64,000 bases of DNA from an uncultured Candidatus Saccharibacteria bacterium. Lineage in GTDB: Bacteria > Patescibacteriota > Minisyncoccia > Phycocordibacterales > G965230995. A program made the translations under genes and the position numbers. Each line of letters opens with the position of its first letter. Position 1 is the stretch's first letter. The stretch covers positions 73,868-137,867 of the forward strand of contig OZ246398.1 in NCBI GenBank assembly GCA_965230995.1. The letters run 5' to 3'. The notes below the pieces were generated by a model. It was not told the origin of the DNA, searched no databases, and saw only the letters and a list, made by a program, of their open reading frames with translations. This document shows, piece by piece, positions 6,197 through 64,000 of the stretch.

Positions 6197-6295
6197 AATT
6201 TTTTTAATAATAACTAATAGTTCAATTGACCTAATTGAATACTTAAATATTATACTATTCTTTCGTTAAAAGAAGAAATTAGTTATCAACAAAAA

Positions 6296-6893
6296 AACGA
6301 CTTCGTTATTTTGTGCGCGCGGGAGGACTCGGTCACTCTCGTGGCTTTTTATTTCGTCCATTTGATGTTCCAGGACTCGGTCACGAATCACTAAGTCTGC
6401 TCATATTGCAAAGCAATATTGCGCGGACTAAGTGTTCGCGACCCCGCCTCACTTCTGAATTCTTTTTGGCAAAAAAGAATTCAGACTCCGCTTCGCTCCG
6501 TGCGTTCCGGCCTTCTCGTCCTGTCTCGAAACACCGGACAACAAAAAAGTGTACTAAGCGTACACTTTTTTGTTGTCAGTGCGCGTGCCAGGACTCGAAC
6601 CTTACAGGTTCAGTACCCCGATTGGATAATTACTTCGTCCTAGACGGACTCGTAATTATGCTCAATCGGGCTTCGAGTCCTGGACGAAAAGTCCCCCGGA
6701 CTTTTCTCACCAGCACAAAACAACTTCGTTATTTTGTGCGCGTGCCAGGACTCGAACCTTACAGGTTCAGTACCCCGATTGGATAATTACTTCGTCCTAG
6801 ACGGACTCGTAATTATGCTCAATCGGGCTTCGAGTCCTGGACGAAAAGTCCCCCGGACTTTTCTCACCAGCACAAAACAACTTCGTTATTTTG
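6296..6893 (-). repeat. tandem repeat array downstream of tRNA-Ile: two identical 157-bp units (6579-6735, 6736-6892) each ending in the 3' 22 nt of tRNA-Ile, plus degenerate older copies and long hairpins (6296-6578)
   Basis: Period 157 bp read directly from sequence (GTGCGCGTGCCAGGACTCGAACC recurs at 6579, 6736, 6893); degenerate GTGACCGAGTCCTCCCGCGCGCACAAAATAACGAAGTCG at ~6296-6330; 18-bp perfect hairpin 6541-6580; 14-bp palindrome 6456-6490. Confidence 0.85.
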
Positions 6894-6966
6894 TGCGCGT
6901 GCCAGGACTCGAACCTGGGACCACGGAGGTATAAGCTCCGCACTCTACCAACTGAGCTACACGCGC
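6894..6966 (-). tRNA. tRNA-Ile (anticodon UAU), no encoded CCA
   Basis: Reverse complement GCGCGUG-UA-GCUC-AGUUGGUA-GAGU-G-CGGAG-CUUAUAC-CUCCG-UGGUC-CCAGG-UUCGAGU-CCUGG-CACGCGC-A; canonical cloverleaf, U33, A37, anticodon UAU. Confidence 0.7.
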
Positions 6967-7056
6967 ATTTGTATCGAAATACTATCGCAAACTTTAAAAT
7001 ACAGCAAATATTGTAAAAAAGTCCATATTGCAATAAAATTAAGTTTTGAAAAACAT

Positions 7057-14310: not shown

Positions 14311-14408
14311 TATTGATAAATAATATAACGTCTTAATAAAAAATAAAACCCGTTTAAAATCCCATTGCCTATTGCGAGGGTAAACAACAATCACTAATAC
14401 TTAACCAA

Positions 14409-14454
14409 TTGACACCACTAAATAAATACATAGTCTTTAAATCAGGCCAAGGAG
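14409..14454 (+). promoter_or_regulatory. promoter and RBS of GC-rich island 1 (TTGACA ... AAGGAGG)
   Basis: TTGACA at 14409-14414, AT-rich -10 region, AAGGAGG 14448-14454 followed by GTG 14461. Confidence 0.4.
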
Positions 14455-14460
14455 GAATTG

Positions 14461-14750
14461 TGACATTAGTACAAGTCCTTGCGGTTCAGAAACAGAGCGA
14501 ACAACCGCTAACCAAAGGAATGCTCCCAGGGATCATTGCAGAATGCCACAGGTGGCCATGGCCCGGCAGAACATCTGTTCGGTATACCGCCACAAACGGC
14601 AACACCATTGTGGCAACCATGCTACAGATTAACGGTAGCCACACTGTCACGAGCATGCAAAATGCCGTACAGCTTATGCTCACCAGGGGAGAATCTGAAT
14701 TCGTAACCAAAGAAAACGGGGGGCTCATTCTATGGACTGTCGTTCCGTAA
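14461..14750 (+). CDS. hypothetical protein encoded in GC-rich island 1
   Basis: 96 aa from GTG after AAGGAGG (the ORF track uses a longer frame from 14409). Codon usage and G+C are clearly higher than neighbours. No recognisable motifs. Confidence 0.35.
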
Positions 14751-14777
14751 TGCCGGAAGACCTCCGACAGAACGGAG

Positions 14778-14804
14778 AAGGCGCGCCACGGGCGCGCCTT
14801 TCCT
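14778..14804 (+). terminator. rho-independent terminator (GGCGCGCC palindrome hairpin) ending island 1
   Basis: AAGGCGCGCC-ACG-GGCGCGCCUU then UCCUCAUUU. Confidence 0.6.
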
Positions 14805-15980: not shown

Positions 15981-16009
15981 TTGACTTTATACACAAAGAT
16001 TGTATTATT
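15981..16009 (+). promoter_or_regulatory. sigma70-like promoter, first of three homologous promoters in GC-rich island 2 (TTGACT-N16/17-TATTAT)
   Basis: TTGACTTTATACACAAAGATTGTATTATT; near-identical copy at 16466-16496 and related copy at 16991-17019 (TTTACT-N17-TATAAT). Confidence 0.5.
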
Positions 16010-16048
16010 ATTTTGGCTTAGAGTTCCTAACACAAGCGGAGAAAAGCG

Positions 16049-16396
16049 ATGAGTGAAGTCACTGTAACCCAGCTCGTTAAACATGAGCACTTCCTGAGGG
16101 ACATCGGGTGTCTGAAGGGGTTCCTCAGTCATCTCGGCTGGCATCTTCCGGAAGATGTATTCGTGGTATGCCTACATCTTACATGGAAGGAAATCACCCT
16201 ACTCATGGTCAAGGAAACAATGGGGATCGGAGTTCCACATAAGTGCACAGTGATGGGTACCACCTCTATCACGGCGGAGAACGTTGTCCGCATGATTGAC
16301 TGGACCTTCAGACACCATTACGAACTCATCGTGAGACCTCCGGACAACAAGTTCCAGTTCCGCTTCATTCATCAACTGCAATCCCCTGGCGCCTAG
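16049..16396 (+). CDS. hypothetical protein A of GC-rich island 2
   Basis: 115 aa, GGAG RBS, GC-rich codons, followed by terminator hairpin 16424-16449. Confidence 0.4.
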   Translation: MSEVTVTQLVKHEHFLRDIGCLKGFLSHLGWHLPEDVFVVCLHLTWKEITLLMVKETMGIGVPHKCTVMGTTSITAENVVRMIDWTFRHHYELIVRPPDNKFQFRFIHQLQSPGA

Positions 16397-16537
16397 GAAG
16401 CGCCACCCTACCCACCAAGACAGCCCACCAAGGCGCGTCTGGTGGGTTTGTCATTTATGCAGAACTTTACTTTATGTATAAAGATTGTATTATAATTTTG
16501 GCTTAGAAGTTCTGAACTCACAACCGGAGACCAGGAA

Positions 16538-16900
16538 ATGGCACCCGCCACAACCAAAGATATCCACATTGGACGCGAACAATTGTATGTGTTCTTAAGT
16601 GGAAAGGATGGACACGGTGGTCTAGAGGCGCAATTCGGAGACAACGGAGTAGTCACCCTACACGTTATGCATCGAGGAGAAGGTTCTGCAAAAACCATCA
16701 CGATCCAAGTAACGATGGAGAGACGTGTTGGTTTCCAGGAAGAAAAGCTAGTGAAGGTGATCGAAGAGTTTGACGGAGAGGAAATCAATGGATGGATTTC
16801 CTCCCTGATGAAGGGAAACAACATTCCACTCTTCTTCTTACCACCCAACCGCTTCCACCTGTTCCATTTCAAAATCGATGATATACCCCCCGGCGTCTAG
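16538..16900 (+). CDS. hypothetical protein B of GC-rich island 2
   Basis: 120 aa, own promoter copy and GGAGACC RBS, followed by terminator 16928-16953 homologous to the first. Confidence 0.4.
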   Translation: MAPATTKDIHIGREQLYVFLSGKDGHGGLEAQFGDNGVVTLHVMHRGEGSAKTITIQVTMERRVGFQEEKLVKVIEEFDGEEINGWISSLMKGNNIPLFFLPPNRFHLFHFKIDDIPPGV

Positions 16901-17065
16901 GAGACGCCACCCCACCCACCAAGACAGCCCACCGAGGCACGTCTGGTGGGTTTGTCATTTATGGCTAAAATATGTGGCTTTTTTGTACTATTTACTTTTA
17001 AACGCGTTTGTTGTATAATATATGAGAAACAGTACCGTACAACAAACCAATTAGGAGACGCTACC

Positions 17066-17563
17066 ATGCGTTACTTCACCATCGTTCTATTCGCGGTCAC
17101 GATGTTCATCACCGGTAGCGGGTGCATTGCCTACTACCAGATCAACGGAAAGGAAGGAGTCCTCGCCGTTCCACCCCTTGTGGGTACGCCGGTGGTGGTT
17201 GTCGCTTCCTGCGACCGCTGTCACTACCGTCACTGCCGTTGCGAGCAGTATGAATACCGCTGGCAGTGCGAGATCTGCAACCAGTACTTTGGTCGGCTTG
17301 CCGACCAATACTGGGACGGAGGACGTCGCACCTGCCGGTGGTGCCATCATGAAAAGTGGCCCTACCGCGCGTGGCAGTGCACAGTGTGCCATGGTTACTA
17401 CTGGCCAGTGGATGTTCGCAACAACATACACCGTGGCCATAACACTTGCTGGCGGTGTCTCGTGAGAGACAACATGGAGTGCGAGCAAGGCTGTAACGAA
17501 CCAACAACACTGCCCTGTCGCAGGTGGTATCATAGCTATTTCGGACCACCTCCTCCGAAATAG
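17066..17563 (+). CDS. cysteine-rich (about 20 Cys, multiple CxxC) secreted or lipoprotein-like protein of GC-rich island 2
   Basis: Start at internal ATG after AGGAGACG RBS (ORF track starts at 16946). N-terminal TM/lipobox-like FITGSGC; CDRCHYRHCRC, CEIC, CRWC, CTVC, CWRC; terminator 17567-17615. Confidence 0.45.
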   Translation: MRYFTIVLFAVTMFITGSGCIAYYQINGKEGVLAVPPLVGTPVVVVASCDRCHYRHCRCEQYEYRWQCEICNQYFGRLADQYWDGGRRTCRWCHHEKWPYRAWQCTVCHGYYWPVDVRNNIHRGHNTCWRCLVRDNMECEQGCNEPTTLPCRRWYHSYFGPPPPK

Positions 17564-17631
17564 CCCCCCGCCAGAGAGAACCCGCCAGTACACGGCGCCT
17601 CTCTCTGGCGGGTTTTCTTTTGTCTTAAAAT

Positions 17632-19867: not shown

Positions 19868-21247
19868 CTAAAGCTCAATGTCGTACATCTTGCCTTTTTC
19901 TGGATATAATGCGCTGATGTCGTATTCGTCAACAATTCTCTGTGCCAGATACAAAGAGGACTTTGGTTCACCCATAGCAACAAAAACTTTTTCTAAACTA
20001 TCTACTCCGGTACCAACAAAACCAAGCAAACCATCAGAATCTTTGTGTGACGAATATCCAAGCACACTCACAATCTCACTTTTTACTTTTACGTAATCTT
20101 CTTCGATTTTAATTTTCTTTAGTCCTTCAATTAACTGCCTCCCAACTGTGCCAACCGCCTGATAACCTACCAATATTAGAGTATTTTGTGGATCAGGTAG
20201 GTATTTTTTCTCGTGAGATTGGATCCTACCACCAGCCGACATTCCAGAACCTGCAATAATAATCTTTGCTCCTGGGATGCTATGTATAGCAGAAGAATCA
20301 ATAACGTCTTTGACTAGTTTTAGTTTTGGAAAATCAAATATATCATCACCACTTTTTATTTCTTGTTTTACAAGATTGTTAAATTGTTCTTTGTATCTGC
20401 CATAAACACCTGTGACCTTTATTGCAAGCGGAGAATCCAAAAATACAGGCACAGAAGGGATTTTATGATCTTCGACCATATTGTTTATCTCGTACAAAAT
20501 TACTTGAGTCCTTTCGAGAGAAAATGCAGGAATGAGCACCGTTCCGCCGCGTGCCAAAGTTTTCTTTATGGTCTCTTGCAATTTTCTATCTCTCTCGTCT
20601 TTTGAATCGTGATTTCTATCTCCATAGACACTCTCCATCACCAAATATTTAACTCCTTCTCCAATTGATTCTGTATCAGACAAAAGCGGTGACGGTGAAT
20701 TACCGAGATCTCCTGTAAACATAATTTTTCTGTCTTTGTTTCCGAGAGAAAATTCTACCATTACAGATCCGAGAATGTGTCCAGAATTTTTGAAAAAAAC
20801 ATTTAATTCATCAACTTTAAAATCCTTGTGATATTCTGCTTCTTTCCAAAGCGACATTGTTTTGGTCACTGCTTCTTTTTCATACAGTGGCAAGGTGCCA
20901 TATTTTTCATAGTTATATGACATTATCTTCAGCGCATCTTCAAACATAAGCCCGGCTATTTCTTTTGTTGCCGGAGTAGAATATATGTCTCCATTAAATC
21001 CCATTTCAACCAATCTAGGAATACGACCAATATGATCCATATGTGCGTGAGTCACGAAAAGTGCCGATACTTCACTTGGGTTATATTGGAAAGGTTCGTA
21101 ATTGCTTTTCTCTCCTTCGCGCCCTTCTTGGCAAAGACCACAATCAACAAGATATTTTTTACCTTGTGGTGTTGTGAGCATAAAATTAGCTCCAGTTACA
21201 CTGCCCACACCACCAAAACATGAGAGTTTTAATTTTTTTGTATCCAT
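19868..21247 (-). CDS. metallo-beta-lactamase / beta-CASP ribonuclease (RNase J-like)
   Basis: 459 aa; HAHMDHIGRIP (HxHxDH), beta-CASP order; shorter than canonical RNase J (lacks C-terminal domain). Confidence 0.55.
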   Translation of the reverse strand: MDTKKLKLSCFGGVGSVTGANFMLTTPQGKKYLVDCGLCQEGREGEKSNYEPFQYNPSEVSALFVTHAHMDHIGRIPRLVEMGFNGDIYSTPATKEIAGLMFEDALKIMSYNYEKYGTLPLYEKEAVTKTMSLWKEAEYHKDFKVDELNVFFKNSGHILGSVMVEFSLGNKDRKIMFTGDLGNSPSPLLSDTESIGEGVKYLVMESVYGDRNHDSKDERDRKLQETIKKTLARGGTVLIPAFSLERTQVILYEINNMVEDHKIPSVPVFLDSPLAIKVTGVYGRYKEQFNNLVKQEIKSGDDIFDFPKLKLVKDVIDSSAIHSIPGAKIIIAGSGMSAGGRIQSHEKKYLPDPQNTLILVGYQAVGTVGRQLIEGLKKIKIEEDYVKVKSEIVSVLGYSSHKDSDGLLGFVGTGVDSLEKVFVAMGEPKSSLYLAQRIVDEYDISALYPEKGKMYDIEL

Positions 21248-46842: not shown

Positions 46843-46870
46843 GCGCCCCGCCTTCGGCGGGGCGCTTTTA
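46843..46870 (+). terminator. terminator after rpmB
   Basis: AAAAGCGCCCCGCC-UUCG-GCGGGGCGCUUUU. Confidence 0.75.
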
Positions 46871-46958
46871 CTTTACTTTTACAAAAAATAATATAGGGTT
46901 TTACCCAGAGTCAGACATCCGTCTGACAAAAAAGAACCTCAAACAAAGACTGAAAGCA

Positions 46959-47570
46959 ATGGCCACAAACTGGAGAGTTCAATTCGAGAGACGTCGCGAG
47001 ATATGGGTCCACAACGGAAGCGATCACACACCGCATTTGGTGCTTCCATCCGGGCTTCACTCAGACGGCTTCTTCGATGTCGAGGGAATCAAGAACAACG
47101 ACAGTCAGCTAGCGCTCGCTTCTATTGGTCTTCTGACCAAACTTTCCGGCCACATTGACCTCTGCGAAGCAGGAGGTGTCGTTGGGCACCAACATCTCGC
47201 GGAACCACTATCGAATGACATCACCCGCCGCACGCACGGCAGTGAGAGCCTCTGGGTTTCCCCAATCGGGGAGTCAGACGAGATGTCATTTTGCGAAGAA
47301 GACGCAAAGTCACTTCTAAGGAGAACGGTCATCATCTGTGATTTCGTCGCTAGCGCTGGCCGTATCAAGTCAATGGCAGATGCTGTTCTGAGGGCTGGCG
47401 GGTTAGTACTGCCTTACGCGCTCGTCCTCCTCAACCCCATGGGCTATGCCCGAATCGACGACGACATGCTCGTCATCTCGCTCGTGAACCAGCAGATGAA
47501 CAGATGGGAGCCCCAAGACTGTCCCCTGTGCAAGATGGGGTCGTCAGCCGTCAGCACCATCGACAGTTAA
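46959..47570 (+). CDS. phosphoribosyltransferase-like (OPRTase/PyrE-like type I PRTase fold) protein with C-terminal CxxC, encoded in GC-rich island 4
   Basis: 203 aa; LPSGLHSDGFFDVEGI (PRPP-loop-like), RTVIICDFVASAGRIKSMADAV (PRTase hydrophobic-acidic motif); markedly GC-rich codons; hairpin terminator 47605-47628. Confidence 0.45.
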   Translation: MATNWRVQFERRREIWVHNGSDHTPHLVLPSGLHSDGFFDVEGIKNNDSQLALASIGLLTKLSGHIDLCEAGGVVGHQHLAEPLSNDITRRTHGSESLWVSPIGESDEMSFCEEDAKSLLRRTVIICDFVASAGRIKSMADAVLRAGGLVLPYALVLLNPMGYARIDDDMLVISLVNQQMNRWEPQDCPLCKMGSSAVSTIDS

Positions 47571-47632
47571 CCCCCTCGCCAAAAAAGAAATTGGTGAGAA
47601 CCCGGCTCCGCACACAATGCGGAGCCGAAACT

Positions 47633-53406: not shown

Positions 53407-54594
53407 ATGAAAGCTGAATCTCTCAAATCAAGTTCAGATAACAAAAAAGAGCCTGAATTTTTCGAAGACCCAGCGGTATTTAATTGGAAAGACAGTCCTT
53501 CGATTGGTGATGCCGGACTATCAGAAACAGAAATATCAATGATAAGAAATGATCTAACACCAGAGATTGCAGAGAAATTACTCCAAAAATATGATTCCGC
53601 GATAGCACAACATAAAGAATTTGTATCATATATGATTAAAGACTTCGGTCTGCAACTTGGGCAAGATTGGCTTTTAAAAAGTGGTGCATCTAGTGCAAGA
53701 TCTATGATTCTACGCATTGTATCGAGGATAAAAAAAGAAGGCTATACAAAAGAAACAGAGAGAGAAATTGAATCCATAGATGACAGAACACTTCTTATGC
53801 TTAATATAGACAAACTCTTATCAAAATTTTCCTCAAAATATACCCCCGGAAAACAGGTCGAAACCAGTAGCGAGGCATTACATACAGATATTTTTCCAGC
53901 ATCAGATCTAACAGAAAAACAATGGGAAGAAATCTTAAGGATATGCAAAGATAATTATACAGATGATAAAATATTATTGACTTATGTAACTGAAGCCCTA
54001 AAAAGGCTACGAGAAGATGCTCCGAGACTTTCAAAGACCCGTTTTCACTTAGTAAACAGTTTTGATTTGCCAATCGCTTTTTTAAGAGTAGAAGAAAGAT
54101 CCCCGGACACGGTATTTGTTGGAACATTAAATTCCAACCGCTTATATAATGGATATAATGTTGGAATTAAACTATATGAAAATGCTATAAATGAACTAGT
54201 AAAAGAAAAAGTTGTGCTTGCCGAGGCCGACCCCACTTCAGCTATTATCCTAAAATACAGTAAATCCGGTGCGTATTTCTATGACACAAAAGAAATTTTG
54301 GACAACAACGGAAATTCTCGGACACTAATATCACTCATATGGAGAAATAGACCAGAAAGAACTAGAGAATTAACAGCGGAAGAATACTCAGACGAGTACT
54401 TAAATGAAATCAAGTCAGAAGGAGAGATATTTTCCGAGAGCTGTGAAAAAAGGGAACTCCCAACGAGACTAGTAGAATTAATAAAAGAAGGAAAAGTAAT
54501 AATATATGTCTACAAAAATTCTGGTAAATTCGAAATACTTTATCAAACATTAACACCAGAACTTAAACAAAAACTACTTCAAAAGAGAGTCTAG
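53407..54594 (+). CDS. hypothetical protein
   Basis: 395 aa ORF, no recognisable motifs. Confidence 0.35.
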   Translation: MKAESLKSSSDNKKEPEFFEDPAVFNWKDSPSIGDAGLSETEISMIRNDLTPEIAEKLLQKYDSAIAQHKEFVSYMIKDFGLQLGQDWLLKSGASSARSMILRIVSRIKKEGYTKETEREIESIDDRTLLMLNIDKLLSKFSSKYTPGKQVETSSEALHTDIFPASDLTEKQWEEILRICKDNYTDDKILLTYVTEALKRLREDAPRLSKTRFHLVNSFDLPIAFLRVEERSPDTVFVGTLNSNRLYNGYNVGIKLYENAINELVKEKVVLAEADPTSAIILKYSKSGAYFYDTKEILDNNGNSRTLISLIWRNRPERTRELTAEEYSDEYLNEIKSEGEIFSESCEKRELPTRLVELIKEGKVIIYVYKNSGKFEILYQTLTPELKQKLLQKRV

Positions 54595-55341
54595 GTCCCA
54601 TATAAGATCAAAAATTGCCGTTATAGATTCCTTGATTGATATAGAATCAATTACAACACCGACAAAAACGCCTTTTCTAAAGGTTATAAATGCAACCTTG
54701 TTTTTAAATGAATATATAACTGTATCAAGCAATTTAGTAGTTTTTAATTTTACAGTTTTAAAAGTAACCCATTCATCCTTTAAAGAACTAACGAGATCTT
54801 CGTTTTCCTTTGTTTCTGGAATAATAATTCTCTTCTTAACACCTTTGTTTCTTCTAATCTTTAAGTATTCTTCATTAATCTTTGCTATTTCCCCACTAAC
54901 CGATCGCAAGTCTACAAATTGGTAAACTATTTCATCCTCACTAACATCTAGAGTTTCATCTAAAATCTTCCATATTCCTTTTTTCCCCTCAAAGAAACGT
55001 ACATTTGGCTTTCCAGAAATCAGATTAAAATCTGAAATCATTTCTCCCATTATTGCTTCCAAAGAAGATTTGGCTGTGCTTATTTTTCTAGCCCTATCAT
55101 CTACAATTTCTTCTATATGTTTTGGGTTTTTTGCAATGTATTTTAATATTTTTGAGTCTTTTACGTTCTCTATTAGATTAAGAACTAAAAGTTGCTTAAT
55201 GTTTTTGTAAACCAAAGTCCTCTCTATCCCTGTAAGGAGAGATATCCTAGCAACCTGAATAGGTCCGTTTTTTAGAACTGCTTCATATATACGGCTCTGG
55301 TCATGTGTTAAGCCTGCGTCAACTAAATATTTTTCATACAT
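54574..55341 (-). CDS. TrmB-like transcriptional regulator (winged HTH + C-terminal domain)
   Basis: N-terminal LTHDQSRIYEAVLKNGPIQVARISLLTGIERTLVYKNIKQL; C-terminal NKVAFI motif shared with three paralogs downstream. Confidence 0.5.
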   Translation of the reverse strand: MYEKYLVDAGLTHDQSRIYEAVLKNGPIQVARISLLTGIERTLVYKNIKQLLVLNLIENVKDSKILKYIAKNPKHIEEIVDDRARKISTAKSSLEAIMGEMISDFNLISGKPNVRFFEGKKGIWKILDETLDVSEDEIVYQFVDLRSVSGEIAKINEEYLKIRRNKGVKKRIIIPETKENEDLVSSLKDEWVTFKTVKLKTTKLLDTVIYSFKNKVAFITFRKGVFVGVVIDSISIKESITAIFDLIWDLDSLLK

Positions 55342-55478
55342 ACAATTTTTTATATGATTTATATACTATAATATTTTTATCTGTTATGCAAATTTCACAA
55401 AAATATTTGAAAATTTAAATATAAAAATGGCTTTTTTTATAGTTTTTTCAAGATTTAGTGATATTTAGTTATGTTTAT

Positions 55479-55513
55479 TTGACATAATTAAACGCCTAGT
55501 GTAAAGTCATGCA
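55479..55513 (+). promoter_or_regulatory. strong sigma70-like promoter of GC-rich island 5 (TTGACA-N17-TG-TAAAGT)
   Basis: TTGACATAATTAAACGCCTAGTGTAAAGT. Confidence 0.5.
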
Positions 55514-55812
55514 CAGAAAAGCCCGACAGCAATCGGGGTGAAGCACCAAAAACATTAACTGGCGGTCTAGCGTCCAAAGCAAGGACGTAGAGTGCACAAA
55601 GCCTAAGGGAAGCAAGGCAGTGCACCCCATTAGACGGGATATGGGCGTAAGTGACGCCCAGCCTACAAGTGAACTGACAGGCACTTGTTCAGCTTCCCAT
55701 GTGAAGAACTCTTTCTGTTGTGGACGGTCCAATCCCGTTGAAACAGAAGAGACGTATTGGTAGGAGAATTACCAATGTCAAAAAAATCTCCGGGCGGTTT
55801 GCTGACTGCCCG

Positions 55813-55861
55813 TCTGTCGCAGGATGGTTCCTGCCTGATGAGCCAATAATGGCGAAACAGA
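55813..55861 (+). ncRNA. hammerhead ribozyme copy 1, type III topology (closed stems I and II, open stem III), predicted cleavage after C55818
   Basis: UCUGU-C^-GCAGG-AUGGUU-CCUGC-CUGAUGA-GCCA-AUAA-UGGC-GAAAC-AGA; all catalytic-core nucleotides present. Confidence 0.8.
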
Positions 55862-56125
55862 ATATTTACCGTCGAGGACAACTCTTAACTGCTCGGGCGC
55901 ACGTGCACGATCGTAGGTCGGACGTGAACCACGCACATAAATAGAGACAACAAGGTATTGTGCTGAAAAGGCTTCGGGTAAGTGCCAGCTGTTTGCTGAG
56001 TAACTAACGGACACCCTTAGTAGGCAACCTCGCGGAGGATAGAATCTCTACTATCCCGTTGGTGTGACCATCGACAATAGTCACAAAAATTTTTGGAGAT
56101 GGTTTGCAAACACCTTCCATCTCCA

Positions 56126-56176
56126 TTCTGTCGCAGGATGGTTCCTGCCTGATGAGCCAATAATGGCGAAACAGAA
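56126..56176 (+). ncRNA. hammerhead ribozyme copy 2, type III, predicted cleavage after C56132
   Basis: 52 nt identical to copy 1 (UCUGUCGCAGGAUGGUUCCUGCCUGAUGAGCCAAUAAUGGCGAAACAGAA); stem III UUCUGU/ACAGAA. Confidence 0.8.
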
Positions 56177-56207
56177 ACAATTCCTTTGTAACTATTGGGA
56201 GGTTTGT

Positions 56208-56417
56208 ATGTTTGATTACCGAAGAGCTGAGCGTGACGCTGACATCGAAGAGCTGTACCGGGAAGACGAGCACCTCATGGTTAGTATCACAAAGCTCGAA
56301 ACCCTCAAACCCACCCCAAAAATCAAAGAAAGAATAAGTAAAATAAAGAGAAAACGTGCAGTGATACAATCACTGCTGAGGGAGGCCAAGGAAGACAGAT
56401 ACTTCCACGGCCTGTAG
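56208..56417 (+). CDS. small hypothetical protein (69 aa) downstream of hammerhead 2
   Basis: GGGAGG RBS 7 nt before ATG; charged helical MFDYRRAERDADIEELYREDEHL...; hairpin + T-run terminator ~56420-56455. The ORF-track 56064 start reads through the ribozyme and was rejected. Confidence 0.35.
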   Translation: MFDYRRAERDADIEELYREDEHLMVSITKLETLKPTPKIKERISKIKRKRAVIQSLLREAKEDRYFHGL

Positions 56418-56488
56418 CCCTCAAACCACCCGCAGGACTTAGGTCCGGGGTGTTTTTGTATTTGTGCATTATCAATTTAACCTATATT

Positions 56489-57541
56489 CTACAAAGCAAC
56501 ACATTTGTTATTTTCTACCTTTGTTAAAGTAAGATCTCTTTCAACCACCCTATCATCACCGAATTCAACTGTTCCATATAGACCATCAATTTTTGCAGTC
56601 TTTAGATATTCTCGGACTTTTTCTGGATTATCTCCGACTTTGTCTATTGCGGTTAGAAGAATCAATGTATTTTCAAAAGCAGATGTGTAGAATGTTGAAT
56701 ATTCACCACCATGACCATCAATCCATTCAACGATTTCTTTGTTTCCTACAACAGGAAACTCGTAACTTAGTGAACCTTCGAGAGAATTGGCGGTTAAAAC
56801 CCCAGGTAGAGTACAAGAAAGATAGGAAACAAACTTTTTATTGTCTATCCCAATATTATTTAAGTCTTTATAAACAGGATTGAGTGAAGAACCATATGCA
56901 ACGACAACTAATTTATCAGGATTAAACTGTTTGATTTTTGCAGCTTCAGTAGAAAAATCCTTTGCATCTCGTGCGACTGAATAGCTCGTAACTGTAATTT
57001 TATCCTTAACTGCATTACGAATATTATTTTCCCATTGTATTCCGAACTCATCATTAGTATAAATAATTGCAAGTTTTGATACTCCTGAATTCTTCATGTA
57101 TGGACCAACACCGTTTAACGAGGTAAGAAAGTTTTGAAAGAAATTATTATAGTTTCTATTAATTCCAATAGTAGTAGCGTCAGTTACCAACACAACGTCA
57201 TTTGAATTTGTGAGCGGAGCAACTGCAGCCGAGACATTACTTAATCCAATAACAGCATAATTAACACCGCTTGCAGCAAAAAGTTTCTGAGCGACAGACA
57301 CACCCACTTTTGGATCACCAACCGTATCTTCTTCGACTAGATTAACCTTAACATTGTTTTTTTCTTCAAAATATTTAACAGCGTCCCTTGCCCCTCGAAT
57401 TGACCTTTCTCCGTATGTAGAAACAGGCCCAGACTGTGCATAAAGGGCACCAATAGTTATTTCCTGTGAATCCTTCTTGATAAAGGAAATGCCCAAAATC
57501 ACCAAGACTATTACAACCAATATAATTAATTTCTTTTTCAT
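56489..57541 (-). CDS. periplasmic binding protein type 1 (LivJ/ANF-receptor-like solute-binding protein) a
   Basis: 350 aa; N-terminal TM/signal, ITIGALYAQSGPVSTYG start typical of Leu/Ile/Val-binding family. Confidence 0.65.
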   Translation of the reverse strand: MKKKLIILVVIVLVILGISFIKKDSQEITIGALYAQSGPVSTYGERSIRGARDAVKYFEEKNNVKVNLVEEDTVGDPKVGVSVAQKLFAASGVNYAVIGLSNVSAAVAPLTNSNDVVLVTDATTIGINRNYNNFFQNFLTSLNGVGPYMKNSGVSKLAIIYTNDEFGIQWENNIRNAVKDKITVTSYSVARDAKDFSTEAAKIKQFNPDKLVVVAYGSSLNPVYKDLNNIGIDNKKFVSYLSCTLPGVLTANSLEGSLSYEFPVVGNKEIVEWIDGHGGEYSTFYTSAFENTLILLTAIDKVGDNPEKVREYLKTAKIDGLYGTVEFGDDRVVERDLTLTKVENNKCVAL

Positions 57542-57695
57542 AAAATTTATTATCTACTATGTCAATAATGGTAATACAAAAAAAGAACAAGTCAACTTGT
57601 TTAGACTTTTTTTCCTTTCTACCCTTATTTTTCAACATATATAAGTTGACGTCAGTTTTATTGACACTTTTTTGTAAAAAATATATACTAAAAAT

Positions 57696-58454
57696 ATGGA
57701 AGATTTACAGAAAACATTAATAGATTCTGGTTTAAACAAAAAAGAAGCCCAAGTTTATTTAACAGCCCTAGAGCTCGGCCGTTTTAGTATGACTGCTATT
57801 TCTGCAAAATCGAGAGTAAAGAGACCGACCTGTTATCTCATACTTGAACAATTGATAAACAAAGGACTCATAAGCAAGGCTCCACAACCTAAAAAAATGA
57901 TGTATGTTGCCGAACCACCAGAAAAAATTGAGGAGGAATTAAAGAAAAAATATATCGGTTTCAGAAAGTCCCTTCCCCTACTCAAAACCCTCGGTACAAG
58001 ACAAAAGAAAAATCCAGAAATACAATTTTTTCGTGGAGCAAAGGGTGTTGAGGCAGTATATAAGCAAGTTCTCGACGACGCCCCAAAACAAGTCTGCTCT
58101 ATTTTAAATACAGATAGACTTTTTTCTGTTACGGGAAAAGAATTTTTGGATGATTGGATAAAAAAACGAACCGCAAAGGGTATCCACATTGACTCTCTGA
58201 TGACAATTCCAAATGACAAGCAATATTTTTATGAATCTGATCCAGAGATATTGCGAAAGACAACATTTTTTAAGCCAACTACAGCTCTTGGCGGTGCTTT
58301 GTGGTTTTATAATAACAAAGTAGCTTTTGTATCGAGCAAGGAAGATGATTTTAGTTTTATTGTATCAAGCGAAGAGTTCCGAAAGACAGTCCAAGGTGTC
58401 TTTGAAGTTCTAAAAGAAAAATTGGAAAAAGAAAAGACAGAGAGTGATAAATAG
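57696..58454 (+). CDS. TrmB-like transcriptional regulator a
   Basis: GLNKKEAQVYLTALELGRFSMTAISAKSRVKRPTCYLILEQLINKGLIS wHTH; divergent from the binding protein gene. Confidence 0.5.
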   Translation: MEDLQKTLIDSGLNKKEAQVYLTALELGRFSMTAISAKSRVKRPTCYLILEQLINKGLISKAPQPKKMMYVAEPPEKIEEELKKKYIGFRKSLPLLKTLGTRQKKNPEIQFFRGAKGVEAVYKQVLDDAPKQVCSILNTDRLFSVTGKEFLDDWIKKRTAKGIHIDSLMTIPNDKQYFYESDPEILRKTTFFKPTTALGGALWFYNNKVAFVSSKEDDFSFIVSSEEFRKTVQGVFEVLKEKLEKEKTESDK

Positions 58455-58520
58455 CCAAACAAAACAACCACCCCGCAGGCCTTCGGCCTGCGGGGTGGAT
58501 TTGCTTTTTAATGATCTAGA

Positions 58521-59576
58521 TTATTGCACCAGTTTTGAAATAACTACATCACTCTGAAGTATTCTGTTAGCAAATTTTGCTCCAGCATATCCCTCTGGAA
58601 TATAATTATTTGAATTAATTTTATCTATAACACAAGATGCCGACTTGGTACCACAAGATGCCAGAGCATGCCCAGTTGCCATAAGAGATTGGTACACATT
58701 AGCCATAGCAGACACCTGATCGAAAGTAGCATTCGGATACATTTGTTTTGCCTTTTCTTTAAATGCTTCACTTAGCGGTATTTCAAAGACAGTAACCTTA
58801 TTTTTTGCCGTACCCGACAGACTATTTAAATTATTTTCTGTAGCACAATCTTGCTTGTAGCAGAATACTTTTGCATTCACGCCTAATTCAACATTTTGTT
58901 TTATTAGGTTAAAAGAATCGGCTTCATACATAATGCTGAAAATATAGTCTGGGTGAAAATCCTTATTTTGAGTCAAAATAGTACGAAAATCATTACCGGT
59001 GATATTCTCGATAATCTTAATGTTTGACGTAGGTATAACTTTTTCAAGACCATTCATACAGTACGGCACAACATCAACTAATTTTGATAATATAAGTATT
59101 CTTGTGTTTGGATTTGCGTAAGCTTTTGTAAATTTTTCGCAGACCACCTCATAACCCACAAATGTTTTAACAGTATTTGGATTGTCTTCAGCAATTTTTT
59201 GATTGAACGCACTATAGACAAGCACTTTATCTGCACTTTTTGCTATAGGAGCAATGGAACTAGCCATACCAGAAAATTCGGTATAAAGCACATCCACTTT
59301 ATCTATATCAAGCATTTTTTTTGCAACTGTTGCCGCAACAGAGACATTACTTTGACTGTCTTCAACAATAATTGACACATTATTTTTGCCATACTCATTT
59401 TCCAAATCAATTCGTGCAAGGTTTATCCCCATCTTTACTCCCTCACCCCAAAAGGCACCGAAGCCGGTTTCTGGTATAGCAGCTCCTATTGAAATCATCT
59501 TTTTATCTGACGAACCAAAGAAGATTATCAATGAAACAACGACCAGAACGACTAAACTAATGATTATTTTTTTCAT
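58521..59576 (-). CDS. periplasmic binding protein type 1 (LivJ-like) b
   Basis: 351 aa, ISIGAAIPETGFGAFWG. Confidence 0.65.
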   Translation of the reverse strand: MKKIIISLVVLVVVSLIIFFGSSDKKMISIGAAIPETGFGAFWGEGVKMGINLARIDLENEYGKNNVSIIVEDSQSNVSVAATVAKKMLDIDKVDVLYTEFSGMASSIAPIAKSADKVLVYSAFNQKIAEDNPNTVKTFVGYEVVCEKFTKAYANPNTRILILSKLVDVVPYCMNGLEKVIPTSNIKIIENITGNDFRTILTQNKDFHPDYIFSIMYEADSFNLIKQNVELGVNAKVFCYKQDCATENNLNSLSGTAKNKVTVFEIPLSEAFKEKAKQMYPNATFDQVSAMANVYQSLMATGHALASCGTKSASCVIDKINSNNYIPEGYAGAKFANRILQSDVVISKLVQ

Positions 59577-59731
59577 ATGTTTAATAAATATTATTAATAG
59601 ACAATATTATATTAATAATGGCAAATTCTGTCATAACTTAATACGCATATATCTATATATGCTGTGCTATGGCTCTATATATAGATATTAATCTCTTTAC
59701 TTTCTGTCACTTTTTGTGATAGAATTGATAG

Positions 59732-60475
59732 ATGGAAAATTTAGAACAAAATCTAGAAACTTACGGCTTGGATTCAAGGGAATCTCAGATATATGTTTTC
59801 TTATTAAAAAACAAGGATATCCCAGTTACACTAATACAAAAGGAGACCGTGCTACCCAGAGCCACTATATACAAAATTCTAGATAAACTATCACACAAGG
59901 GGCTAGTTACCAGTTGGACAAAAAATAACGTCAGACATTATTCTGCAGAGTCACCTCACATCTTAGAAAAAACAATTGAAAATAGACGACTAGCACTTAA
60001 CGAAGTCATGCCAGAATTAACAAGGCTTTTTGGTATAAATACAAAAAACCCTACATCAAAGCTATACATTGGGAAAGACGGCGTAAAAACAGCATACGAA
60101 ATAATTCTAGAAAAACTAAAACAACACAGAAAGACACGCATTTTAGTTTATACCGACGGAGGATTAGTCGAAATATTGCCAAAATTTTATACAGAGTGGA
60201 AGAAAAAAAGAGATCAAACTGGAGCATTTACAGAATTACTCACACCAGCAAAACTCAGTATCGAGAGGGGCTACCAATCGGATCCTTTTCGAGAAGTTAG
60301 ATATATGCAGGGCGACCTCCCATTCAAAGGAAGTTTCAATGTTGTCGATTCATTAGTTATTTTCTTTTCATTCAAAGAAGAAAATACTTATTCGGTCGTT
60401 ATAGACTCCCCTGTCATCGCCGAAATGATGACTGGTATATTCAAATATTTCTGGAATACGCTTGGTAATAGATAA
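59732..60475 (+). CDS. TrmB-like transcriptional regulator b
   Basis: GLDSRESQIYVFLLKNKDIPVTLIQKETVLPRATIYKILDKLSHKGLV; C-terminus YSVVIDSPVIAEMMTGIFKYFWN. Confidence 0.5.
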   Translation: MENLEQNLETYGLDSRESQIYVFLLKNKDIPVTLIQKETVLPRATIYKILDKLSHKGLVTSWTKNNVRHYSAESPHILEKTIENRRLALNEVMPELTRLFGINTKNPTSKLYIGKDGVKTAYEIILEKLKQHRKTRILVYTDGGLVEILPKFYTEWKKKRDQTGAFTELLTPAKLSIERGYQSDPFREVRYMQGDLPFKGSFNVVDSLVIFFSFKEENTYSVVIDSPVIAEMMTGIFKYFWNTLGNR

Positions 60476-60527
60476 AAGTTACAATCAGTTATTGCTACAA
60501 GCAATATTCTATGATATAATATAAAAA

Positions 60528-60838
60528 CCTGTTAGATAGACGCGGGGCGTAAGCTCTGAGGAAAGTCCGAACACAGCCAAGTATTTTACTTGGAGCAAGG
60601 TAGTGGGTAACACCCATCTGTCGAAAGACACGAGGTGCGAGCAGTGACGCCAAAGGCGAAAGCCCTAGGATTCCTTTGGGAATAATTTGATAGAAATATC
60701 AAAGTGAAACGGCTAAATCCTTATCCCTGTGCAAGGCCGTGCCGGTCGCAAGATCGGAGTGCCGCTTGAGCCGGCAAGTAATTGCCGGCCTAGATTAATG
60801 GCTATCCACGACAGAATTCGGCTTACAGACAGGCATAT
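60528..60838 (+). ncRNA. rnpB: RNase P RNA (bacterial type A-like, reduced)
   Basis: P4 strands GAGGAAAGUCCGAAC (60558-) and ACAGAAUUCGGCUUAC (60811-60826); GGUAAC loop (GUGGGUAACACCCAU), GUGAAACGG, GGUGCGAGCAGUGACGCC; TATAAT at 60515-60520; P1 CCUGU/ACAGG; terminator 60841-60868. Confidence 0.8.
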
Positions 60839-60876
60839 GAAAACCGCAAGCGTTCCGCTTGCGGTTTTCTCTTTGA

Positions 60877-61995
60877 TTACAGATCAACAATCTTTCCTTT
60901 TACTATTTCTCGAAACACTGGCTTTCTATCAACTTCACAATCCTCGTTAAATGTAAGCGTTCCTGTTACCGCAGAATAATTTTCTAATTGGCTTATATAC
61001 TCTCCGACTTTCTTTGGATTATCACCAACGGCTTTTATGGCATCAAGTAATATCACGATTGGATCATAAGTAGCAACGACAAATAGAGGTGCTTCGCTTT
61101 TATATTTTTCCTGATATTTAGCTTTAAAATCTCTTGCTATATCAGAATCGCTACTCTGTATGCTCGACTGATATTCGTAATCAACAAATTTTGCATTACC
61201 AAGTAATGCTTTGTCATTCAGAGATGGATTGTTTACTGTGTAGTAATCAGTAATTATTGGCAAAACAATACCGAGTTCTCTCATTTGGTTTAACATAGGT
61301 TCAATTGTATTGGTCACTTGTGCAATTACAATGGCATCATTTTCACCCTGTCTTGCTTTTATCTTTGTGAGATTAGTTCTATAGTCACCAACAGAATTTT
61401 GTGTGTTATAAAATTCTGAAATCAATATATCCCCCTTAAATTCCTTTTTTAATTCCTCATATATTCCCCTACCATATTCATTATCTGGTAGTAGCGTTGC
61501 AATTTTTTGATATTTATTCTTTTCAAGTAGTTCAGAATATGCTGGACCAAAGTTTTTTGCAGTAAGCGCTATCCTGCATGACATATTATCTCCATCAAAA
61601 TATGCCGGCGTCGTCGGTATTCCAGTAATAATCAAATTTCCATCCTTTAATACAGTTTCTCTCAGAGAAGCAACAACAGGACTTCCGTCAGTCACAATAT
61701 ATTTAACACCGCGAAATTTCAGCTCGTTGTATGAATTAAGTGCAATTTTAGGATCATAACCTGAATCTGAAATGATTATTTCTACCGGTCTCCCATCTAT
61801 ACCGCCCTCGGCATTAATCTTTTCTTGTGCCAAATACACGGCTCTTTTCTGTGTTTCTCCCAATGCCGATGCTGGACCAGTCAAAAACAACTGAACACCA
61901 ATTTTTATTGATTCTTTATTGTCGTTTTTCAAAAACACAAAACTCACAACAACAATAACCAGAATCACTCCGAGCAGTATTTTTAATATTTTCAT
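60877..61995 (-). CDS. periplasmic binding protein type 1 (LivJ-like) c
   Basis: 372 aa, IKIGVQLFLTGPASALG. Confidence 0.65.
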   Translation of the reverse strand: MKILKILLGVILVIVVVSFVFLKNDNKESIKIGVQLFLTGPASALGETQKRAVYLAQEKINAEGGIDGRPVEIIISDSGYDPKIALNSYNELKFRGVKYIVTDGSPVVASLRETVLKDGNLIITGIPTTPAYFDGDNMSCRIALTAKNFGPAYSELLEKNKYQKIATLLPDNEYGRGIYEELKKEFKGDILISEFYNTQNSVGDYRTNLTKIKARQGENDAIVIAQVTNTIEPMLNQMRELGIVLPIITDYYTVNNPSLNDKALLGNAKFVDYEYQSSIQSSDSDIARDFKAKYQEKYKSEAPLFVVATYDPIVILLDAIKAVGDNPKKVGEYISQLENYSAVTGTLTFNEDCEVDRKPVFREIVKGKIVDL

Positions 61996-62150
61996 ATTAA
62001 TAAATCATTTATATTAATGGTCATATTATAGGTGTTTCATTGATTGACGTCATAAAATTTTACTCACAAATCACATTTTGTATATATACCCTTTATTTAA
62101 AAGGTAAAAAAGCCATTTACTTTCGTCATAAATTATGACACTATACTAGT

Positions 62151-62891
62151 ATGGATAAAATAGAGCAGAGTTTAATAAAGTATGGGCTAAGTCAAAGAGA
62201 GACCCGTGTTTATTTATTTTTGTTAAAAAATAAAGACATCGACGTAACAACCATAGGCAAATCCCTATCCTACCCTCGTGCAACTGTTTATAAAACATTA
62301 GACGATCTGAAGACTAAAAACCTTGTTTCTAGCTGGGTTAAAAACGGGATTAGACATTATTATGCTGAAAATCCAAAAACAATAGAAAAAGATGCTCAAG
62401 AAAAAATGGAGATGATCAAAGAAATAATTCCTGACCTGAGCCTTTTTTTTGGCACAGTGACAAAAAATCCAAAGATTTTTCTATACGAAGGTACAAACGG
62501 GATTAAAAATGCTTATGACATGTTGCTTGAAAAAATAAGCACAAAGAAAAATTTACGAATGTATGTCTACACCGACGGCGAACTGATTCCAAAATTACCT
62601 AGATTTTTCAAGGAATGGCGAAAAAAGAGACTTGTCGCGCCCGCAACATCACAAATAATCATACCGGAATCATTTTTGTCGTCTTCTGATTATAAAAGCG
62701 ACGCGCACAGAGAAACCCGTGTAATAAAAGGCGAGTCACCAATGGTAGGTACATTTAACATCTGTGATTCTTTGGTTTTATTTTTTTCGTATAAAGAAGG
62801 AAATATGTATTCAATTGTCATTGACTCACCTGTCATCGCCGAAATGATGACCGGAATATTCAAATATGTATGGAATAGTTTAGAGAAATAA
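62151..62891 (+). CDS. TrmB-like transcriptional regulator c
   Basis: GLSQRETRVYLFLLKNKDIDVTTIGKSLSYPRATVYKTLDDLKTKNLV; C-terminus nearly identical to regulator b. Confidence 0.5.
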   Translation: MDKIEQSLIKYGLSQRETRVYLFLLKNKDIDVTTIGKSLSYPRATVYKTLDDLKTKNLVSSWVKNGIRHYYAENPKTIEKDAQEKMEMIKEIIPDLSLFFGTVTKNPKIFLYEGTNGIKNAYDMLLEKISTKKNLRMYVYTDGELIPKLPRFFKEWRKKRLVAPATSQIIIPESFLSSSDYKSDAHRETRVIKGESPMVGTFNICDSLVLFFSYKEGNMYSIVIDSPVIAEMMTGIFKYVWNSLEK

Positions 62892-62949
62892 GAACAAAGA
62901 AAACCGCAAGCGTTCCGCTTGCGGTTTTCTTTTTGCGACAAATAATGGT

Positions 62950-64000
62950 TTATTCCAATACTTTCCACTTTCCTCCTTCTGCTTCAATCATCAACACTTC
63001 TCTGTTTGATCTTCCCTTTTCATCAAAGGTAACTAGTCCGGCAACCCCGTCATATTCTATATTCTCTACTGTCTCTGAAAAACAATCGTTATCCAGCGTA
63101 TCGTTTTTGAAACATTTTTCAAAACCAGCTTTTATAATATACATATCATCGTATGGATAGACGATAACTGGTGAGATTCCCTCTCCAAAACGTGCTTTAT
63201 ATTTTGCAATAAACTGATTTGTTTTTTCTGAATTACCAACATCGGCAAAACCATACCAAGTGCTCACAGTATTATTTTCCGAGAACAATTGCCTCATTTC
63301 TGCAGTATCGGCTACAGGGAGTGTTGGTGCAGTATATTGGAATGTTTGAGTTCCAATATGACCCATATCATTTAGCTGTTTAATGAGCAAATGTGCGTGC
63401 CTCCATGCACAAGCAATCAAAACATCGTCGTCATTTAAATCTAATTTTGTAATGCTCGTTCGCAAGTCTGTTGCATTTGATTGAAAATATTCTTGTTTTT
63501 CTACATTTATTGCAGAACCTTTTAACACTTTCTTTGCTGAATCGACATACAACTGGCAAACATCACTTTGTTCTGAAATTATTTTTACAGGACGTGAATT
63601 TCCAACACGGTTTATGACTTCGTTTGCAATTGCCACACCACTATGTTCAGTATCAAAGCTGTCTCTAAAAAATATCTCGCTTTGTTCGGCTATCCTGCCA
63701 TCGTTTGCGGAATAGAACATCGGCTTTTTTGCATCCATTACTGTTTGGCTGATTGCCTGAGTAAGATTGGTTCTACCAGAGAAAATCACATCTGCTCCAG
63801 ATAAAATGAGTTTCTGCGCAACAGATGCTGCAACTTTCGGATCACCCTGATTGTCTTCTGATATAATTTCTACTCTCTTTCCAGCAATACCTCCATTTTT
63901 GTTTATTTCTTCTGCCGCTAAAATCAGAGCATTTGTATCTGACTGCCCCAAGAAAGCAAGGCTTCCGCTCAGCGCTGAGTTATTTCCAATCTTAATTACA
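62950..64000 (-). CDS. periplasmic binding protein type 1 (LivJ-like) d, N-terminus beyond window end
   Basis: Reading frame stays open upstream of the TTG picked by the ORF track: ...VIKIGNNSALSGSLAFLGQSD continues the typical binding-protein N-terminus to position 64000. Confidence 0.6.
   Translation of the reverse strand, partial: VIKIGNNSALSGSLAFLGQSDTNALILAAEEINKNGGIAGKRVEIISEDNQGDPKVAASVAQKLILSGADVIFSGRTNLTQAISQTVMDAKKPMFYSANDGRIAEQSEIFFRDSFDTEHSGVAIANEVINRVGNSRPVKIISEQSDVCQLYVDSAKKVLKGSAINVEKQEYFQSNATDLRTSITKLDLNDDDVLIACAWRHAHLLIKQLNDMGHIGTQTFQYTAPTLPVADTAEMRQLFSENNTVSTWYGFADVGNSEKTNQFIAKYKARFGEGISPVIVYPYDDMYIIKAGFEKCFKNDTLDNDCFSETVENIEYDGVAGLVTFDEKGRSNREVLMIEAEGGKWKVLE

Follow-up and report, generated by a model that had tools for sequence, protein, structure and literature searches.

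The role of most self-cleaving ribozymes in bacteria is largely elusive (PMC6765202), and a bacterial locus that carries two of them in tandem raises the question of what their cleavage would be for. We analyzed a 64,000-nucleotide (nt) stretch of DNA from an uncultured Candidatus Saccharibacteria bacterium (contig OZ246398.1, positions 73,868 to 137,867; the window, in whose numbering all positions below are given). A first-pass annotation had noticed two hammerhead ribozymes in direct orientation (HH1 and HH2) inside a GC-rich island of this window, and had offered as readings a DNA copy of a viroid-like, retrozyme-like or Obelisk-like RNA, or a ribozyme-processed small RNA or mRNA. Among these alternatives the last fits best. 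We favor, with a probability of about 55%, the reading that the island is a self-contained and horizontally acquired transcription unit of phage type, which is punctuated and cut by its own hammerheads. Its function is argued by analogy from a single orphan locus. The motif class and the tandem arrangement are already known; a stand-alone chromosomal unit whose leader and hammerhead-flanked piece are both structured non-coding RNA is new.

Two type III hammerheads and their sub-family

Both copies align to the Rfam Hammerhead_3 model (RF00008) over its full length (positions 1-54 of 54) and contain every core element, as the first-pass annotation had stated. UCUGUC, CUGAUGA and GAAAC are present with zero deviations; the NUH triplet (GUC), C3-U4-G5-A6-N7-G8-A9 and G12-A13-A14 are all in place. 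Stem I (GCAGG/CCUGC) is closed by the loop AUGGUU and stem II (GCCA/UGGC) by the loop AUAA, while stem III is open, so that all three helices are arranged in the type III topology. A repeat search returned HH1 and HH2 as direct repeats with 50 of 50 nt identical (55813-55862 and 56127-56176) at a spacing of 314 nt. The count of 52 identical nt given earlier has to be lowered, since the bases bordering the repeat differ (cg and at on the 5' side, t and a on the 3' side). Self-cleavage is predicted after C55818 and C56132, and these positions and the length of the 314-nt product were correctly annotated at the outset. Double cleavage would be expected to leave the 314-nt RNA with a 5'-OH and a 2',3'-cyclic phosphate.

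Both copies scored with RF00008, the model against which the first-pass annotation had proposed to check them, but fell short of its gathering cut-off of 48.5 bits, a curation threshold and no biological criterion, by 0.8 bits (HH2) and 5.4 bits (HH1). Because of these scores they were overlooked in a default Rfam scan of the window, which returned one tmRNA and two tRNAs only. A local permissive scan gave E values of 7.6e-8 (HH1) and 4e-9 (HH2). When the whole 64-kb window was scanned on both strands with 4227 Rfam families, the E values were 4.4e-6 and 2.3e-7, respectively; the two motifs are therefore well beyond chance. In the ensemble computed for the full transcript, the pairs of stems I and II had probabilities of at least 0.95, except for the loop-closing pair of stem II (0.75). 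The hammerheads are identical at 50 of 50 nt, as compared with about 67% identity in the homologous ~50 nt immediately upstream, which indicates that they have been kept far more strictly than their surroundings.

Relatives of the motif were sought with two patterns. The first fixed only CTGTC, CTGATGAGCC and GGCGAAACAG and was run on viral, genome and metagenome contigs. It matched phage contigs, one contig of a Parcubacteria metagenome-assembled genome (MAG; locus L007) and marine or sediment metagenome contigs. The second, based on stem I and the shape of the loops, led to additional phage contigs with hammerheads of the same sub-family. An exact 24-mer of the hammerhead had no match among viral contigs. 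The 12 distinct members gave a clean alignment, in which 97.6% of the cells were paired (35-40% with slid partners) and compensatory changes were seen in 10 of 14 pairs. Stem I, on which the first pattern placed no constraint and the second a partial one, was 100% paired and covaried in all five pairs. The consensus combines stem I GCNNG-AUG..-CNNGC with a stem II of 4 bp, whose loop is A-rich, and with stem III CUGU/ACAG. All 12 members, the window copy included, share the U-G of loop I and one A of loop II, which are candidate nucleotides for a tertiary contact between the two loops. The covariance model R1 was built from this alignment, with HH1 as one training sequence. Neither the Rfam scan nor R1 gave a ribozyme match on the minus strand of the unit or any further hammerhead copy in the window.

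The first-pass annotation had regarded type III hammerheads as uncommon in bacteria. There are reports of all three topologies from bacteria and phages (PMC3088659, PMC7761336), and the sub-family is found in phage contigs and the Parcubacteria MAG; for both reasons the topology is not remarkable here. Tandem hammerheads are common at the loci of the sub-family, with spacings from 294 to about 1070 nt, and the copies inside one locus are identical or nearly identical. Clusters were found in the phage contigs L002, L005, L014, L016-L019 and L023 and in the Parcubacteria MAG contig JBDKKW010000022.1 (L007), whose three hammerheads are the nearest relatives of the window motif. These three type III hammerheads (49.1, 45.4 and 39.3 bits) lie in the same orientation at 2840-4599 of L007, between hypothetical genes and with a tRNA gene adjoining. 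No difference separates the first two; in the third, stem II carries a long insertion and stem I is nearly that of the window copies.

The sequences of L002 and L023 contain a repeated intergenic module that runs from a hairpin through a hammerhead to a ribosome-binding site (RBS) and start codon. A hammerhead also closely precedes an RBS and start codon in the phage contigs L021, L023 and L026. The gap from hammerhead to RBS and start is 10-35 nt at the loci of the sub-family, except that in L007 the start codon is reached only after about 150 nt. An open reading frame (ORF) of 65-321 amino acids was found in 10 of 10 inter-hammerhead intervals of these comparators, and in the phage contigs it takes up the greater part of the interval.

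The window unit resembles these hammerhead-punctuated phage and prophage operons in having two or more hammerheads of the same orientation in one transcription unit. Its copies are identical over 50 nt, belong to the same sub-family and are preceded by a hairpin, as in L002 and L023, and an RBS and start codon follow shortly after a hammerhead, as they do at about 10-35 nt in the phage contigs. The layout common to the window and the phage-type loci is thus hairpin, hammerhead (here HH2), RBS and ATG. Clustered hammerheads that flank prophage genes have been shown to cleave during in vitro transcription, and spliced or circular products were undetected (Perreault et al. 2011, PMC3088659). The processing of polycistronic transcripts is the favored but unproven role of hammerheads (PMC6765202).

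Layout and proposed processing of the unit

The unit spans about 55479-56459 (~0.98 kb). It opens with a promoter-like site and a leader, continues through HH1, the 314-nt segment and HH2, and closes with an RBS, the ORF and a weak terminator (Table 1). The promoter-like site points away from a TrmB-family gene (54574-55341, minus strand), and GC-rich sequence begins about 5 nt 3' of it.

Table 1. Features of the hammerhead unit, with positions in the window and fold z-scores (z)
Feature	Position	Strand	Description
Sigma-70-type promoter-like site	55479-55507	+	TTGACA-17 nt-TAAAGT, 10/12 matches, best in region
Segment A, 5' leader RNA, ~305 nt	55512-55818	+	GC-rich, multi-hairpin, z = -4.5
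Possible decayed third hammerhead	55710-55752	+	Retains UCUGU...GAAACAGAA; lacks half of stem I and CUGAUGA
Hairpin / A-rich linker / hairpin (loop GGUUUGC) module	55757-55810	+	Directly 5' of HH1
HH1, type III hammerhead	55811-55863	+	RF00008 43.1 bits; R1 74.4 bits; stem III 5 bp; cleavage predicted after C55818
Segment B, 314-nt double-cleavage product	55819-56132	+	z = -2.95, branched
Hairpin-linker-hairpin module	56059-56124	+	5' of HH2; UGUGAC..GUCACA and GGAGAUGG..CCAUCUCC
HH2, type III hammerhead	56125-56177	+	RF00008 47.7 bits; R1 71.5 bits; stem III 6 bp; cleavage predicted after C56132
GGGAGG RBS	56197-56202	+	20 nt past HH2, 5 nt ahead of ATG
Orphan ORF, 69 amino acids	56208-56417	+	Charged-residue-rich; predicted antiparallel two-helix hairpin
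Terminator-like hairpin followed by UGUUUUUGU	56430-56459	+	Short, imperfect, with U-run; closes GC-rich unit

We propose that transcription would start just past the promoter-like site and give a primary transcript of about 940 nt. Each hammerhead, evident as a motif, would fold and cut co-transcriptionally at its predicted site. Cleavage would release three products: A, a structured RNA of ~305 nt; B, a structured non-coding RNA of 314 nt; and C, a ~320-nt monocistronic mRNA which would encode the 69-residue predicted helical-hairpin protein. B and C would start with a 5'-OH and the hammerhead stem-loops, the RBS of C lying 20 nt further on, while A and B would finish in a stable hairpin and a 2',3'-cyclic phosphate. 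Cleavage would thereby set the RNA ends, and the stability and translation of the three pieces would therefore be uncoupled. A role of this kind has been put forward for the clustered hammerheads of prophage operons. At this locus two of the three "cistrons" are structured non-coding RNA. The usual idea that phage operons are cut into single-gene mRNAs is thus not the whole story here, because both the excised piece and the 300-nt leader are non-coding.

RNase E prefers ends with a 5'-monophosphate, and the 5'-OH RNA left by the glmS ribozyme is broken down by RNase J1. Cleavage by glmS leads to degradation by cellular RNases (PMC6765202). A beta-CASP RNase-like protein is encoded at 19868-21247 of the window.

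The z-score of the whole transcript was -5.6 and that of segment C -4.8, with the parts ranging from -3 to -4.8; 300-nt windows of the genome gave a mean of -0.59 and a standard deviation of 1.43. Across the island, 300-nt windows had z-scores of -1.4 to -3.9, and the sub-segment 55512-55711 of the leader had -3.7. For the RNase P RNA of the window the value was -2.8 as a whole and -2.4 and -4.9 in overlapping windows. Segment A had no Rfam match at E<=10 and no credible ORF, its six-frame translation being full of stops. Besides about 195 nt of structured non-coding RNA, segment B comprises the body of HH1, the hairpin module and, from stem III of HH2, the 5' strand. No ORF of at least 25 amino acids lies in the 256-nt interval between the hammerheads, in line with the first description of the locus, and the hairpins named there, GGAUAG..CUAUCC and UGUGAC..GUCACA among them, appear in the predicted folds. 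The longest plus-strand ORFs of the unit (117 and 74 amino acids) both run through the hammerheads.

The modules that precede the two hammerheads are homologous (55757-55802 and 56059-56107, ~67% identity, z 4.9, 3 of 1000 dinucleotide shuffles). Homology among the segments is limited to these ~50 nt before each hammerhead. We also considered A, B and C (305, 314 and ~320 nt) as a diverged trimer of a ~314-nt unit and rejected it; the global A-B comparison gave a z of 1.8, and A-C and B-C gave nothing. Within segment A, the parts retained at 55710-55752 are the stem III strands and GAAA. R1 scored this stretch at only 10.6 bits (E 0.03), a weak hint that it may be a decayed third hammerhead.

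Two 13-nt stretches (56075-56087 and 56185-56197) form an inverted repeat with 92% complementarity, and the minimum-energy fold of the whole transcript pairs them in a long-range helix. HH2 lies between the two strands of this helix, which stops at the first G of the RBS. One might speculate that the helix couples cleavage, or RNA B, to translation.

The GGGAGG RBS and the small ORF of the first-pass annotation were both found. AlphaFold modeled the 69-residue product with a pLDDT of 87.5 and helices at residues 4-31 and 37-66, and a fold search with this model returned generic helical hairpins only (E>=0.4). A word-seeded search gave no homologue, tblastn gave no match in phages, and no Pfam, PHROG or PADLOC family was assigned. 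An exhaustive HMMER search of 1.84 billion cluster representatives gave one match (P0001), which was discarded as spurious, being a translated tandem repeat. The GC content at third codon positions is 0.54, as compared to 0.28 in host genes, and the codon log-likelihood under host usage is -0.07, as compared to +0.11 to +0.41. The ORF is either a gene of foreign origin or no gene at all. We favor a real gene because of the strong RBS and the phage-like spacing of hammerhead, RBS and ATG.

Composition and genomic setting

The GC content of the island is 0.46-0.51 and that of its flanks 0.27-0.40, in agreement with the earlier description of a GC-rich island; the unit itself has 0.47-0.50 and the chromosome about 0.35. 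It rises from ~0.29 to 0.50 near 55512 and drops after ~56450. The window is otherwise core chromosome, with genes for ribosomal proteins, EF-Tu, RecG, FtsH, RecJ, tmRNA and RNase P RNA, and the genes near the island encode TrmB-family regulators and periplasmic binding proteins, as well as RecJ and RNase P RNA. Counting the island, the 64 kb contain at least four GC-rich orphan cassettes. The island is best seen as an acquired cassette, whose hammerhead sub-family otherwise occurs in phages and in a mobile-looking region of the Parcubacteria MAG. A foreign origin is supported by its GC content, by the codon usage of the ORF, by the presence of the other cassettes and by the loci of relatives described below.

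Blastn against phages and plasmids returned nothing for the island. The loci matched by the patterns share only the hammerheads with it, without similarity in segments A, B or C, and a six-frame tblastn of the island against all loci examined again found hammerheads only. A 17-mer and a 20-mer from hairpins of A and B each hit one viral contig. The hit of the 20-mer extends to a 24-nt exact match between the last hairpin of segment B (56094-56117) and 7023-7046 of the phage contig L028 (IMGVR_UViG_3300045988_090739), in the coding sequence of a gene without known function. This match was judged a coincidence because neither DNA nor protein similarity extends beyond the 24 nt.

The first-pass annotation had suggested looking for the island in related genomes. 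No hammerhead and no GC island were found in ~60 kb of loci from relatives (some overlapping) that carry arrays of TrmB and binding-protein genes. In a relative at 64-68% protein identity (L029-L033), the orthologous pair of binding-protein and TrmB genes is followed by a different gene pair, so that the site is neither empty nor filled. The more distant relatives (L034-L036) have no hammerhead, and the profiled 21-kb locus L035 is without a GC island. The host EF-Tu has no cluster mates at 90% identity, and the host belongs to an isolated uncultured lineage; its growth temperature, roughly estimated from the proteome, is about 55°C.

The array at 54574-63951 contains four TrmB-family regulators. 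Three of them are each paired divergently with a gene for a periplasmic binding protein, and the array is followed by a fourth gene of the latter kind. Similar arrays with other members occur in relatives (L029, L034 and L035). The hammerhead unit is divergent from the TrmB gene at 54574-55341 and occupies the position that a binding-protein gene takes beside the other three TrmB genes. The unit may be regulated by that TrmB protein; the divergent promoter regions of the four TrmB genes do not align with each other. The only moderately close orthologue of this TrmB is P0003 (44% identical; ENA ERZ1426828 and ERZ1426852). Its contigs have gene-free gaps of 851 and 968 nt upstream of the TrmB gene, in the position that the island holds here and of similar size.

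Contigs of the same organism, assembled from several metagenome samples, match both flanks of the island without a difference. The contigs L001, L008, L009 and L010 (Logan assemblies SRR14271367 and SRR14271374) break off precisely within the 50-nt repeat on either side, and the 314-nt middle segment will therefore be prone to loss from short-read assemblies.

The other GC-rich islets (14401-14800, 16000-17600 and 46850-47600) have GC contents of 0.46-0.58 and ORFs without a Pfam or PHROG family. In the islet at 16000-17600 there are two paralogous cassettes, with promoter-like modules repeated at 15981-16022 and 16466-16507 and terminator-like modules of two hairpins each at 16383-16459 and 16887-16963. 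The idea that GC-rich sequence simply means structured RNA in a thermophile was weakened by these islets: the RNase P RNA fits it, but the others are orphan ORF cassettes. GC-rich composition here thus points to acquired cassettes and to structured RNA genes alike. The RNase P RNA is of class A (60524-60841, plus strand) and was missed in the default scan with 99.3 bits against an Rfam cut-off of 100. It lies between TrmB and binding-protein genes and, like the hammerhead unit, is a GC-rich transcript behind an AT-rich promoter.

Elsewhere in the window, a tRNA gene (6894-6966, minus strand) adjoins two 100% identical tandem units of 157 nt (6579-6735 and 6736-6892), each of which holds a copy of the 3' part of the tRNA; a fourth, diverged copy lies at 6294-6331. 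The repeats have fold z-scores of -7.7 and -10.8, and an ORF at 6313-6786 without a Pfam match is probably non-coding. The 157-nt units could be tRNA-linked repeats or repeated attachment sites.

Competing explanations and significance

Several observations weigh against an acquired unit of phage type that is cut by its own hammerheads. The insert between the hammerheads is non-coding, unlike 10 of 10 comparator intervals, and the sole ORF follows HH2. Unlike phage and prophage operons, the unit has no phage, integrase or tRNA context within 8 kb, and no phage or integrase genes were seen near the island; it stands alone among core chromosomal genes, with its structured non-coding leader. No homologue of segments A, B or the ORF was found in any search. 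The strong promoter announced by the first-pass annotation is indeed a good match at the level of consensus, but such sites are not enriched (4 found, 3.3 expected from shuffles). Similarly, the annotated terminator is a short imperfect hairpin with a U-run at the level of consensus, and the plus-strand terminator scan made no call. Both Rfam scores lie slightly below the curated cut-off. Stem III is weak in the full-transcript ensemble (probabilities of 0.05-0.11 at 37°C and at most 0.39 at 55°C), as computed with nearest-neighbor models that leave out the hammerhead core and its tertiary contacts. The fold z-scores of the minus strand are equally negative, and the strand is thus identified by the hammerheads and not by structure.

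The island might be a decaying remnant of an acquired, hammerhead-punctuated phage operon, in which A and B are dead cistrons and the hammerheads may still cut while nothing is selected. A possible third, decayed hammerhead would fit such decay, and so would a unit whose parts are all orphans, whose composition is foreign, whose terminator is weak and which was not found in the loci of relatives. We nevertheless consider a remnant unlikely. The hammerheads remain identical at 50 of 50 nt beside a module at ~67%, and the GC content of the island has not drifted toward that of the host. In their structure, segments A and C stand out from the background (z -4.5 and -4.8), which would be unexpected for dead coding sequence, and the ORF is intact with a strong RBS. 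The flanks of the island are identical across the contigs of several metagenome samples.

Still less probable, in our judgment, is a gene for a circular RNA, in which the 314-nt RNA is closed by RtcB or by the hammerhead, and this circle either acts as the functional product or serves as a mobile-element intermediate. Retrozymes are circular RNAs that carry hammerheads and are encoded in the genomes of plants and animals (PMC7761336, PMC7229834). The window shares with them identical tandem hammerheads in direct orientation that enclose non-coding RNA; its 314 nt lie within the ~170-1000 nt taken for this class, and the circles of animal retrozymes measure 170-400 nt (PMC7229834). There is no ORF to express between the hammerheads, unlike in 10 of 10 phage and MAG intervals. 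The ends of segment B would have the right chemistry for ligation and are brought together by the fold, where 55857-55863 can pair with 56125-56131 (ACAGAAU/AUUCUGU). The resulting hybrid stem III of 7 bp exceeds those of HH1 (5 bp) and HH2 (6 bp) in the precursor, though two additional base pairs are weak evidence. RtcB circularizes 30-80% of doubly cleaved retrozyme monomers in vitro (PMC7229834).

On the other hand, a circular product was not detected for bacterial tandem hammerheads when it was sought (PMC3088659). The predicted 314-nt circle is branched, with 8 hairpin loops, and not rod-like. It keeps stems I and II, and no alternative fold buries the hammerhead; it should therefore re-cleave. 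Of the retrozyme-like reading in the first-pass annotation, the tandem hammerheads with a non-coding unit hold, whereas the hammerheads do not lie in longer direct repeats (there are no long terminal repeats past 50 nt plus ~50 diverged nt), target-site duplication is absent (the flanks are CCCG upstream and ACAA downstream) and there is no second copy in 64 kb. Unlike retrozymes, moreover, the unit has a bacterial host and an ORF downstream in the same transcript. A scan of 35 longer ORFs of the window revealed neither RtcB nor a reverse transcriptase. A circular RNA product may form but finds no support here. Its most elaborate form would be a prokaryotic counterpart of the retrozymes, that is, a chromosomal gene with a TrmB-controlled promoter for a ribozyme-excised, covalently closed RNA of ~314 nt, together with a co-expressed small helical protein that may bind the RNA. 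We regard this as doubtful and rank it below a circular RNA gene as such.

Tandem ribozyme pairs that enclose 186-399 nt are also found in the 5' untranslated regions of eukaryotic RNA viruses, where self-cleavage has been linked to expression of the downstream ORF (bioRxiv 10.1101/2024.05.16.594327). As in these viruses, a self-cleaving pair here surrounds a small non-coding segment upstream of an ORF. The viral pairs differ in that they belong to RNA genomes of fungal or plant viruses, are mostly of type I and serve cap-independent translation, whereas the window has a bacterial DNA locus with a Shine-Dalgarno site.

Chance resemblance, or hammerhead-like sequences that are inactive, would agree with two scores under the Rfam gathering value but is very improbable in view of whole-window E values of 2e-7 and 4e-6, R1 scores of 74 and 71 bits, and two identical copies with every invariant core position present. 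The least credible reading of all, which failed each test applied to it, is the viroid-like or Obelisk-like one, in which the island would be the DNA copy of a viroid-like, satellite or Obelisk-like RNA that replicates autonomously: the type III topology is shared with Avsunviroidae, hammerhead satellite RNAs and Obelisks, and a ~0.94-kb unit with a small helical protein is superficially Obelisk-like (PMC10827157), but the ribozymes are of one polarity with none on the opposite strand, the predicted fold is branched and not rod-like, there is no Oblin-sized ORF or Oblin homologue and the 69-residue ORF has no homologue, the unit is encoded in chromosomal DNA with a putative promoter and terminator of its own, and the nearest hammerheads are those of DNA phage contigs and a bacterial MAG.

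An acquired unit of phage type, punctuated by its own hammerheads, is thus the reading that we favor for the island. If the unit is merely a processed leader or a relic, it would be a further example of a known arrangement. If it is a prokaryotic counterpart of the retrozymes, it would be the first such gene on a bacterial chromosome. This compact unit of 1 kb, with its promoter-like site, two perfect hammerheads and one small ORF, would be easy to synthesize and offers a direct route to asking whether bacteria make defined, stable or circular non-coding RNAs by means of hammerheads.

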